Positions 54,002 through 56,032 of a stretch of DNA of 64,000 nt are shown here, one piece after another (the stretch's first letter is position 1; each line of letters opens with the position of its first letter). The notes below the pieces were generated by a model, which was not told where the DNA came from, did not search any database, and saw only the letters and a program-made list of their open reading frames with translations. Made by a program: the position numbers and the translations under genes. Source of the DNA: Escherichia phage vB_EcoP_WFI101126; sequence record NC_070991.1; one strand, written 5' to 3'.

Positions 54002-56032
54002 TTAACCTCTATTCAATGAACATTTAGGAGAATTACAATAAACTTGATTCATAGAACCAAGCGTACAACTTTCAGCATCGCGCCACGGAATCTGCTTAAA
54101 ACACTCTGAGCAGTATCCGAGGGTTGACCACATTGCTTTGGTGAAGTCAGTGCTTCGGTTTCCGTCGAAGCTGACAACAGTTTTGCGGAGAGCTGTTCGT
54201 GATTCAGGAAACACACCTGCTTTCTCAGCAGGTTCCTCCTTTTTTGGCTTAGTTGAGATTGCAAAAATACTGTTGCTACGTTTCTCAACATAAGCATCAA
54301 CAACATCCTCCAGAGTGATGCCTGTCTGTTTCGCTGAGGAAGGTAATACAGTCATACGACCAATCATTTCTTCAGTTACACGTAAAGCAAATTCAGGACG
54401 ACGGGAGTTTGTTGTATCTGTTGCTCTAATCCAGACATAACCATCTTTGATCGTAGCATTAGACACTTTCTTCTTTACATCTACAGCACAAACTTTACAG
54501 ATATCTTCACCACGAAGACGACTAAGCTCTTCATCGAACTCATTCTCTGTTTTAACTTCACCGCAGATTTCACAAACACCAATAGGAGTTTCCTCCTCTT
54601 CTTCATCTTTAGGCTTAGTTAAACCTTCCAGACATTCAGGATGCCAGTAGCACTGATAAGCGAAGACTGCTTTAGGAGCATCTTTCCAATCAATGTGTTT
54701 ATCGCAACCACCACAATCTCCATGAGAGTGTGCTTCCCAGAATTTACGAGTGATAGTAACGCCATTATTGTTGACGAAACTATCATTCATATCAAAAGGG
54801 ATATCATCATCGAAGTCAGCAGTAGTAGACTCAGGCTCCTTTTTCTCCAGAGATGGGTCAACAAAACGACCTGCTGTGATCACTAAACGAACCATAGCAT
54901 TAACTTCGGAGATGCAGGATACTGTCCCACGGTAAACAATCTTAGGGTCTTTCAGTGCGTCCTGATAAGCCTTAATGTCTACGTTATGAACATCACCTTC
55001 GATATACTCTTGAGACTTCTCATCGTAGATATAACCAATCATCTTACCACGAGAAGGAACAGCACCAGCAGTTGCATAAGGAACGAACTCATGCGGAGTG
55101 ATTTCCACAGTCATATCGCGGCGAATGTCAATGTTTCGATCGCTTGCGATTTTGTTTTGACTTACCACTGCGTTTCTTCGACGAACGTCTGCTGCTGTCA
55201 CTCCCGGCTTCGTGTCGTAAGGATTGCTTGTACTGCTTTTTGAGGAACTTTGATAGTTGCTTTGGCTGTAGTTGTTCGAGTAGTAACTGCCCCAACGATT
55301 GACTACCGTAAAAACCGGAAGCTCGTGGGCGACCTCTTCAACCAGAGTCATGCTGTTGTTTGACATATCAAAGATATACTCTGTACCAACTTTACATTCA
55401 AAATGCTCATCAATACGGTTCTTGTGAGATCTAGAACGCTTCAGAATCCACATCAACATGTCTTCTTCAGAAGCACCAAACCAATCTCTGTTACAGCGTG
55501 CTAGATGGAAAGGACGCTCTTCGTTACGGATGATATGAAGACGGTTATCAGAAGCATCATGCCAGATTAAGGTGAAAGCACCATCCAGCTTTTGAATAGT
55601 CTCTGCTGCACCAATAGTGTTAATAGAGTGGCAGATGTTCTCACTGTCTACCTCGAAGTTTTTGCTGTCAGGTAACAGGTCTTGGTCCATCAAGGTTCCG
55701 TTATGAACCAGAGTGATGTTACCATGTTGGAAAGGATGGGCGTTCTTGGCGTTAACTGCACCTTTCGTTGCATGACGGCTGTGACCAACAATCCATGAAG
55801 GTGCTACAGTGTAAGCTGTTTCACCAGTGGTGTGCTTCTTGTACTCATCTTGTAGGATGAATGCGAAAGAAGGAAGAGCTTCTTTATAAGTGAAGACTTC
55901 CTTAGTGCTTTTACGCTGACCAAAGATACCAGAGGAATGTTGTCCTCTGAATACTCCAGCATAAAAGAGTTGGTTAAATACGTCTAAATCAGTGCTTGAC
56001 AGATTACCGCCAGCTAATACGATGCCACAAAT
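54002..56032 (-). CDS. class II (Ntn) glutamine amidotransferase with Cys-rich C-terminal domain; extended upstream of the track start to a non-canonical ATT
   Basis: In-frame upstream codons encode CGIVLAGG...FRGQHSSGI...HSRHATKG...HPF (Cys-first Ntn signature); track ORF 54002..55693 begins after this; C-terminal half has several CxxC pairs. Confidence 0.65.
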   Translation of the reverse strand: MCGIVLAGGNLSSTDLDVFNQLFYAGVFRGQHSSGIFGQRKSTKEVFTYKEALPSFAFILQDEYKKHTTGETAYTVAPSWIVGHSRHATKGAVNAKNAHPFQHGNITLVHNGTLMDQDLLPDSKNFEVDSENICHSINTIGAAETIQKLDGAFTLIWHDASDNRLHIIRNEERPFHLARCNRDWFGASEEDMLMWILKRSRSHKNRIDEHFECKVGTEYIFDMSNNSMTLVEEVAHELPVFTVVNRWGSYYSNNYSQSNYQSSSKSSTSNPYDTKPGVTAADVRRRNAVVSQNKIASDRNIDIRRDMTVEITPHEFVPYATAGAVPSRGKMIGYIYDEKSQEYIEGDVHNVDIKAYQDALKDPKIVYRGTVSCISEVNAMVRLVITAGRFVDPSLEKKEPESTTADFDDDIPFDMNDSFVNNNGVTITRKFWEAHSHGDCGGCDKHIDWKDAPKAVFAYQCYWHPECLEGLTKPKDEEEEETPIGVCEICGEVKTENEFDEELSRLRGEDICKVCAVDVKKKVSNATIKDGYVWIRATDTTNSRRPEFALRVTEEMIGRMTVLPSSAKQTGITLEDVVDAYVEKRSNSIFAISTKPKKEEPAEKAGVFPESRTALRKTVVSFDGNRSTDFTKAMWSTLGYCSECFKQIPWRDAESCTLGSMNQVYCNSPKCSLNRG

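Follow-up and report, generated by a model that had tools for sequence, protein, structure and literature searches.

Where does translation begin in a gene whose reading frame offers no canonical start codon ahead of its catalytic nucleophile? The question is raised by a minus-strand gene of Escherichia phage vB_EcoP_WFI101126 (NC_070991.1), which was analysed in a stretch of 64,000 nucleotides (the window) and of which positions 54,002 to 56,032 are displayed. The phage is a phiEco32-like podovirus (genus Kuravirus, subfamily Gordonclarkvirinae), matched by 95 phage records at 77-98%, and the gene, the homologue of phiEco32 gp83, sits in an early module (Amidoligase_2, phiEco32-type COOH-NH2 ligase, ATP-grasp enzyme). 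Its product is a predicted 675-residue phage class-II (N-terminal-nucleophile, Ntn) glutamine amidotransferase (GATase). We put at roughly 85% the probability that its translation starts at an AUU codon (56032-56030), directly before the codon for the catalytic cysteine.

On the minus strand, the order is CAG GTG GAT TAG (56038-56036) AAA (56035-33) ATT (56032-30) TGT (56029-27) GGC ATC GTA TTA, that is, stop-KI-CGIVLAGG. Between the TAG and the Cys codon there is thus room for AAA and ATT alone; a canonical in-frame start first appears 114 codons past the TAG (TTG 55693). The window has 42 stop-to-stop frames of 150 codons or more; no other has so large a gap, the runner-up being 30 codons, and the gap is too extreme to be a matter of chance. 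A coding sequence (CDS) read from the ATT is 2031 nt long, as is annotated phiEco32 gp83, and the computed mass of the full protein is 76.0 kDa. An earlier, sequence-only reading had placed the stop, the ATT, the Cys codon, and an AGGTGG 8 nt upstream at these positions, and every coordinate was correct on re-reading. The motifs FRGQHSSGI, HSRHATKG, and HPF are likewise present where it had found them, in the ~113-residue region upstream of the TTG/ATG, and its statement that the frame holds no ATG, GTG, or TTG between the stop and the Cys codon, leaving ATT as the sole plausible initiator there, holds. It had overlooked an in-frame ATG (56065-56063) that opens a nine-codon mini open reading frame (ORF), which is considered below.

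Codons 1-113 bear the marks of a translated sequence. The ratio of nonsynonymous to synonymous substitution (dN/dS) was 0.06-0.10 when the window was compared with SU7 and KBNP1711, members of two other genera, and 0.07 for codons 114-240, whereas the two other reading frames of the same region, taken as controls, gave ratios above 1.5; flanking dS between the three genera was 1.3-2.9, i.e., saturated. There are no stops or frameshifts in codons 1-113 in 95 genomes, and a 31-mer running from the Shine-Dalgarno (SD) sequence through TAG, AAA, and ATT to TGTGG is identical in 95/95 phiEco32-group records. Identity across 95 independent genomes excludes a sequencing error, the alternative that had been left for resequencing.

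Outside the group, ATG-TGT/TGC-GGx-ATx is read exactly at the position of the ATT (other AUU/AUC lineages were counted separately). These outgroups are Salmonella phage 7-11, Cronobacter vB_CsaP_009, Proteus 3H10_20, ECO319P1, and Vibrio Vp_R1, further Aeromonas LAh_6, PaP3, GP100, CW02, and TacPo2, and many IMG/VR and metagenome contigs. Because the nearest of them (63-65% amino acid identity) have ATG, the ATT is derived in the phiEco32 group. The homologue alignment proposed in the sequence-only reading was also run: homologues do not start downstream, but all at the codon before the Cys, which is ATG in 112 of the 132 unique sequences surveyed. Each of the comparative tests proposed there supported AUU initiation.

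The nature of the enzyme explains why the position of this codon matters. Pfam matched GATase_6 at 55.1 bits (cutoff 27) and GATase_7 at 27.4 bits (cutoff 25). A single-sequence search against PDB found no match and a profile was needed; built from 13 phage homologues, it matched the GlmS N-domain (1xff, E=2.7e-9), aligned 1-174 to 1-177, and residue 1 also matched that of PurF (1ecb). Profile position 1 is thus Cys1 of GlmS and PurF, in keeping with the earlier claim that the cysteine is the first residue after removal of Met. In the alignment of the 13 homologues, C1 is invariant in 13/13, and R28-G29, H83-x-R85-x-A87-T88, N96-A97-H98-P99, H109-N110-G111, and D128-S129 are invariant or nearly so; R28, G29, N110, G111, and D128, corresponding to the oxyanion- and substrate-binding Arg, Asn-Gly, and Asp, are invariant. 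Like the class-II domains of GlmS, PurF, and AsnB, the window protein has the M-CGI(V/F) start with Cys1 as catalytic residue and keeps the conserved Arg, Asn-Gly, and Asp, but no SIS, PRTase, or synthetase domain comes after them. Across its 675 amino acids, Pfam found GATase domains only, with no SIS domain and no match beyond residue ~192; the RefSeq name, L-glutamine-D-fructose-6-phosphate aminotransferase, is therefore unsupported, there being no C-terminal SIS domains, and identity with GlmS was rejected. In EP335 (L006, 442-1542), it is the amidoligase gene that bears an "L-glutamine-D-fructose-6-phosphate aminotransferase-like" name, and product names are unreliable. The C-terminal ~430 residues (54002-55300, minus strand), which have no Pfam domain, contain several CxxC pairs (CGGC...HPEC, CEIC...CKVC, CSEC...C...C), a pattern that suggests zinc ribbons.

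As an annotation, the AUU start is not new. The phiEco32 (EU330206) and SU10 GenBank records already begin the CDS at ATT, and among the 128 CDS starts of phiEco32 (112 ATG, 13 GTG, 2 TTG, 1 ATT), gp83 (ABY52884.1 / YP_001671828.1) is the only ATT. These are the same gene, SU10 gp85 being the counterpart, at 97-98% nucleotide identity; their leader does not differ, and the window phage is simply one more Kuravirus isolate. Elsewhere the CDS is shortened, by 113 residues in Paul (start at ATG 55690), by 44 in KBNP1711, by 53 in EP335, and to an internal Met10 in SU7, and it covers the ATT in only ~7 of 60 sampled records; gene callers refuse ATT. No discussion of the ATT start codon was found in the accessible literature, outside which lie the original phiEco32 papers (Savalia 2008, Pavlova 2012). 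The invariant leader and the family-wide recurrence of AUU/AUC, described next, both appear to be unreported.

The rare start is not confined to the phiEco32 group. A survey of 160 further loci (IMG/VR and metagenomes) found, immediately ahead of the catalytic Cys, ATG in 131, ATT in 22, ATC in 2, TTG in 1, and TGC in 1 (ATG-TGC-TGT), with 3 unresolved. Twelve of the 22 ATT loci are of phiEco32 type; the rest have unrelated leaders and encode proteins 30-40% identical to the query, and in the AUU/AUC loci not of phiEco32 type, the frame is closed by a stop 1-11 codons before the start codon, the interval lacks a canonical start, and an SD lies 6-8 nt ahead. On a neighbor-joining (NJ) tree of 139 unique and very divergent N-domains, there are about 14 non-AUG lineages (Fitch minimum, 13 changes), and an ATG locus is clearly the closest relative of 10 of the 14. 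AUU or AUC is used by ~12% of unique family members, whereas GTG occurs in none of the 139 sequences and TTG only twice. By comparison, in well-annotated bacterial genomes, GTG accounts for ~14% of starts, TTG for ~4%, and all other codons together for well under 0.1% (bioRxiv 10.1101/063800). This pattern of recurrence points to selection for a class-IIA start codon. Not every occurrence need be an independent mutation: the AUU loci share features of the ribosome-binding site, GGAGGAT-(T)AG-N3-4-ATT-TGTGG, which suggests that part of the recurrence stems from cassette exchange, and loci L106 and L100, whose CDSs are 96-97% identical, have unrelated upstream sequences, showing that 5' regions have been exchanged.

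One further member deserves separate mention. In Pseudomonas phage O4 (Zobellviridae; L188, NC_031274, 280-310), the sequence reads GGAGGATAAA ATT ATC TGT (TGA GGT TCG GAG GAT AAA ATT ATC TGT). As read, there is no canonical start, so that ATC, or the ATT one codon earlier, must be the predicted initiator; the RefSeq CDS is 36 codons shorter at its 5' end and leaves out the catalytic Cys. Three metagenomic ATT loci (L052, L084, L097) have GGRGATGAG(A/T)AAATTTGTGG in common. In each, an ATG in a different frame stands 8 nt ahead of the ATT and begins an ORF of 6-8 codons that runs into the start of the GATase (MRKFVE..., or MSKFVES and a stop); this could be a common 5' cassette or a competing start site.

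What precedes the ATT in the phiEco32 group is unusually constant. Ten genomes from Kuravirus, Suseptimavirus, and Nieuwekanaalvirus were aligned and variable columns counted in 30-column bins: bins of the flanking genes held 4-23, that at 56078-56050 held none, and that at 56049-56020 held one, a synonymous GGC/GGT difference at 56024. Over 62 nt, 67 records match the leader at 100% and 28 differ from it by that one mismatch (56024), conservation reaching to ~56013. The features of the gene and its leader are collected in Table 1.

Table 1. Positions of the features of the gp83 homologue and its leader in the window.
Feature	Position	Strand	Remarks
Full CDS, phiEco32 gp83 homologue	54002..56032	-	ATT start, 675 residues from Cys1, TAA stop
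Class-II (Ntn) glutamine amidotransferase domain	55310..56029	-	residues 1 to ~240; Pfam GATase_6/GATase_7 and profile vs PDB
TTG (55693-91) and ATG (55690-88), first canonical in-frame codons	55688..55693	-	internal Leu-Met of ...NGTLMDQD...
Invariant leader block, ~55 nt	56025..56079	-	0 substitutions in 10 aligned genomes, three genera
TGT, predicted catalytic N-terminal Cys	56027..56029	-	Cys1 after Met removal; aligned to GlmS/PurF residue 1
ATT, inferred initiation codon (AUU)	56030..56032	-	ATG occupies this position in more distant homologues
Mini-ORF (upstream ORF 2, uORF2)	56036..56065	-	ATG AAA GGG TTT ACC CTT CAG GTG GAT TAG (MKGFTLQVD-stop); in frame with GATase
Shine-Dalgarno AGGTGG	56041..56046	-	8 nt (ATTAGAAA) before ATT; inside uORF2
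Small hairpin AAGGG-TTTA-CCCTT	56048..56061	-	between uORF2 start and SD; centroid fold
Possible upstream ORF 1 (uORF1)	56070..56108	-	ATG...TAA, MGASDKGAQFKG-stop; sequence reading
G+C-rich hairpin GGTGCCTC...GGGGCAC	56084..56104	-	gp84-gp83 spacer

The upstream amidoligase gene ends at a TAA (56114-12, minus strand), 3 nt past which uORF1 starts; uORF1 in turn ends 4 nt before the ATG of uORF2, whose TAG ends 3 nt before the ATT. uORF1 is open in SU7, with a 3-nt indel, and in KBNP1711 and EP335, where it ends at a TAG just before the uORF2 ATG. The G+C-rich hairpin has a compensatory variant in SU7 and ECBP2 (GGGCGCTC...GGGCGC), a double change of Kuravirus GGTGCC/GGCAC vs Suseptimavirus GGCGC/GCGC, and lacks a proper U-tract; its sequence could suit a weak terminator or a stem for RNA stability or processing, rather the latter.

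The leader is also found in Aeromonas phage BUCT695, of a different family (Grimontviridae), at 92% identity, with the ATT, the TAG, and the mini-ORF (as MKGLTLQAD and a stop) retained. Two changes fall within the mini-ORF there, both non-synonymous, one in the loop of the small hairpin and one in the SD. The loop position of the first agrees with the small hairpin, although as a single informative variant it gives weak support, and a hairpin sequestering the SD, which was also entertained, is weakened by both changes. The BUCT695 protein is closer to that of ECO319P1, which starts with ATG, and this suggests that the 5' cassette of the leader has moved laterally between phages. Broken short ORFs (e.g., MDKVLKKITHQGDCWLWTGCINSDGYPKE and a stop) lie between the amidoligase-like gene and the conserved leader of BUCT695 (L024, 2304-2500); they resemble by eye the N-terminus of an HNH homing endonuclease, and a homing event could underlie the movement of the leader between phage families, but Pfam gave no match and the remnant was not accepted as such.

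Other identities for the leader were searched for. No Rfam family matched it (best E-value 0.07, far below the gathering score), no sigma-70 promoter was matched on the gene strand, and the leader matches neither the gp36 motif tAATGTAtA nor the 7-11 late promoter GTAAtg-16-aCTA. A repeated operator was rejected, as neither the window nor phiEco32 holds another copy, and a long-range minimum free energy fold enclosing the mini-ORF was not significant (z = -1.43). On the plus strand, 55996-56023 reads as a sigma-70-like promoter (TTGACA, 16 nt, TACGAT) within GATase codons 3-12, from which the ATT and the leader would be transcribed in antisense. Such promoters were no more numerous than in shuffled sequence, and the -35 element is only partly kept in other genera (TTGAGA, TTGAGG, by eye). 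Outgroup GATase genes (L019, L020, L008, L009, L024) carry a TTTAAATGTAA(A/T) motif upstream of the SD, ~20-30 nt before the start; at the homologous place, 56070-56081, the window holds TTTAAAGGTTAA, which matches neither the gp36 nor the 7-11 late consensus.

The mini-ORF gives rise to two alternatives to direct initiation at AUU. Ribosomes might load mainly at the mini-ORF AUG (56065), or be relayed from gp84 via uORF1, melt the hairpin, stop at the UAG, be held by the SD, and restart at the AUU, de novo 30S initiation being minor. Start would still be at AUU, but expression would then be set by translation of the mini-ORF. The arrangement of stop, 3 nt, and AUU is that of the E. coli thrS-infC junction (UAA GGU AUU, against UAG AAA AUU here), at which reinitiation accounts for about half of the translation (PMC3592434). 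All 95/95 records and BUCT695 preserve the ATG, the TAG, and the frame of the mini-ORF, the ATG has an A/U-rich context and an SD-like AAAGGU 7 nt upstream, uORF1 stays open across genera despite indels, and in 9 of 13 non-AUG lineages the start codon follows, at a distance of 1-4 nt, the end of an ORF that has a canonical start. However, conservation of an ORF cannot be separated from conservation of nucleotides in an invariant leader, and where the leader does vary, in BUCT695, both mini-ORF changes are non-synonymous and the AAAGG before the mini-ORF ATG is absent. A further ATT lineage, L199, has the GGATTAGAAA-ATT core with neither an ATG mini-ORF nor a hairpin, nearby stops are equally frequent at ATG loci, and coupling to the upstream gene is looser, not tighter, in most AUU lineages than at ATG loci. 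We therefore regard reinitiation as the principal route as possible but rather unlikely. Alternatively, amber readthrough from ATG 56065 would yield MKGFTLQVD-X-KI-Cys..., with a 12-residue propeptide to be cut off autocatalytically. The mini-ORF is in frame with the GATase and has a canonical ATG, its ATG, TAG, and frame are conserved even in BUCT695, and the extension is near in length to the propeptide of Bacillus subtilis PurF, 11 residues that are removed autocatalytically and are another way of exposing Cys1. Unlike PurF, the window gene would require readthrough of an amber codon: with ARAGORN, the window yields no tRNA and the full phiEco32 genome only tRNA-Arg(UCU), hence no suppressor tRNA, and TAG is a normal terminator, ending 14 of 128 phiEco32 genes, so that suppression or recoding of TAG was rejected. 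In addition, homologues have ATG right before the Cys and no propeptide, the in-frame stops of other AUU lineages are different ones (TAA, TGA), placed 1-11 codons ahead of the AUU and followed by no canonical start before it, the SD is ideally spaced for the AUU, and a mini-ORF will be in frame by accident one time in three. Readthrough is accordingly judged very improbable, and AUU initiation with ordinary fMet removal is much the simplest account. A canonical -1 slippery heptamer around AAAATTTG was rejected by eye, as it does not enter the GATase frame.

Two other explanations set aside either the N-terminal domain or the translational role of the leader. If the domain were a decaying relic, the product would be made from TTG 55693 or ATG 55690 and lack glutaminase activity. 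Automatic gene callers do pick a downstream start, as in the Paul record, and the SU10 protein was identified by mass spectrometry (MS) via a 563-amino-acid model. On the other hand, no SD precedes the TTG/ATG, N-terminal peptides were beyond the reach of the SU10 database, and low dN/dS at saturated dS, invariant catalytic residues, and 95 genomes free of stops and frameshifts do not describe decay; the dN/dS of codons 1-113 rules out a truncated product, and we attach next to no weight to a relic. The leader's invariance, by contrast, could in principle have nothing to do with gp83 translation and reflect a promoter, processing site, operator, antisense RNA, homing-endonuclease target, or recent spread of a 5' cassette. 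The conserved block is sharp-edged, it occurs in BUCT695 next to broken ORFs and ahead of a protein closer to that of ATG-start ECO319P1, L106 and L100 show that 5' regions are exchanged, and the opposite-strand sigma-70-like promoter would cross the leader. Against this, the block is centred exactly on the SD, the stop, and the start, the gene strand has no sigma-70 or gp36-type promoter, no Rfam family or second genome copy was found, the antisense promoter is not above the shuffled expectation, and the endonuclease remnant is unconfirmed by Pfam. We consider such an origin unlikely, and our best guess is that the tight constraint reflects a translational control element.

Several observations nevertheless weigh against initiation at AUU as we read it, or against the purpose given to it below. 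The AGGUGG duplex with the 16S tail is computed at -5.9 kcal/mol, weaker than the SDs of other AUU lineages. On the supporting side, the SDs of non-AUG lineages are stronger at the median (-7.8 vs -6.4 kcal/mol, p=0.009), and these lineages are more often uncoupled from the upstream gene by an intergenic gap (9/12 vs 28/109 ATG loci, Fisher p=0.001), but both statistics are exploratory, treating lineages as independent on an NJ distance tree of very divergent sequences. It follows from the second, ATG loci being mostly tightly coupled, that a special coupling of AUU loci to the end of the upstream gene had to be rejected; a nearby upstream stop is moreover found at 78 of 112 ATG loci, and the infC-like layout is not specific to AUU. 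The in-frame mini-ORF leaves a route by readthrough. That the protein is made is shown by SU10, for which MS of infected cells or phage lysates recovered 9 of its peptides; the "expected mass" given there, 63.8 kDa, is however that of the truncated 563-amino-acid model (computed 63.86 kDa); since that model was in the search database, N-terminal peptides were undetectable, and the result is silent on residues 1-113. The 676-codon model predicts CGIVLAGGNLSSTDLDVFNQLFYAGVFR as the N-terminal peptide. Finally, codon class and comparative statistics are the sole basis for assigning a purpose.

Initiation at AUU has few precedents. The only confirmed AUU starts in E. coli are those of infC and pcnB (bioRxiv 10.1101/063800). 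In infC, as in the window gene, an SD precedes the AUU and the upstream frame stops 3 nt before it; the infC AUU makes expression low and sensitive to discrimination by initiation factor 3 (IF3). Unlike infC, the upstream frame here is a nine-codon mini-ORF and not a full gene, the setting is an early operon of a lytic phage, and there is no reason to expect autoregulation by the gene's product. In E. coli pcnB and Enterococcus faecalis ebpA, the rare ATT limits a protein that is harmful or needed at a low level. The ebpA ATT attenuates expression and, as with this gene in most records, was mis-annotated to a downstream ATG, in that case 120 bp on (PMC4447247). Those are single genes, unlike the present case, in which the rare start recurs in ~14 lineages of a phage family and is tied to Cys as residue 2.

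The proposed sequence of events is as follows. The AGGUGG would position the ribosome, initiation would occur at AUU 56032-56030 with insertion of formylmethionine (fMet), and deformylase and methionine aminopeptidase would then strip the fMet to expose Cys1, as expected from established enzymology. Removal of fMet before a small residue is established for GlmS and PurF. Some of the initiation at AUU may come from ribosomes terminating on the mini-ORF over the SD. In some reporters, AUU lies up to about 6-8-fold below AUG, while GUG or UUG would lower expression only mildly. AUU, AUC, AUA, and CUG initiate at 1-2% of AUG, and AUU is an IF3-sensitive, near-cognate class-IIA start (bioRxiv 10.1101/063800). 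An AUU would thus hold the glutaminase low, or make it responsive to IF3, although the gene has a strong ribosome-binding site to itself within an early polycistronic mRNA, and the purpose is likely strong attenuation or IF3-sensitive control of expression. A wider proposal is put forward tentatively, with odds that we place clearly below even: AUU/AUC would be adaptive throughout the phage Ntn-amidotransferase family, having been gained or exchanged 12 times or more while GUG was never taken up, and would keep a potentially harmful glutaminase at ~1% or responsive to the ratio of IF3 to ribosomes, and the phiEco32 version would be a laterally mobile control cassette of ~55 nt (mini-ORF, hairpin, SD, stop-3nt-AUU), unchanged across genera and moved into an Aeromonas phage of another family.

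Two observations from elsewhere in the window are recorded here. A 200-codon plus-strand frame at 8386-8988, the runner-up named above with 30 codons before any canonical start, is the Ig-like extension of the major head protein; in SU10, MS found head-protein forms of 38.5 and 55.4 kDa, ascribed to ribosomal slippage joining gp9 and gp10. The 42 long frames of the window end in TAA (35) or TGA (7) and never in TAG, yet 14/128 phiEco32 CDSs, for the most part small early genes, use TAG.

In most of the ~95 deposited genomes of the group, and in that of Pseudomonas phage O4, the annotated protein is missing its catalytic nucleophile. Correction of both start and name alters the reading of a conserved phage module of amidoligase, ATP-grasp enzyme, and amidotransferase. 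A family in which about one member in eight starts with AUU or AUC (~12%) and none with GUG would be well suited to asking why selection picks class-IIA starts, and the phiEco32 leader, in a phage that grows on laboratory E. coli, would be a compact test bed for uORF-coupled or IF3-sensitive initiation.

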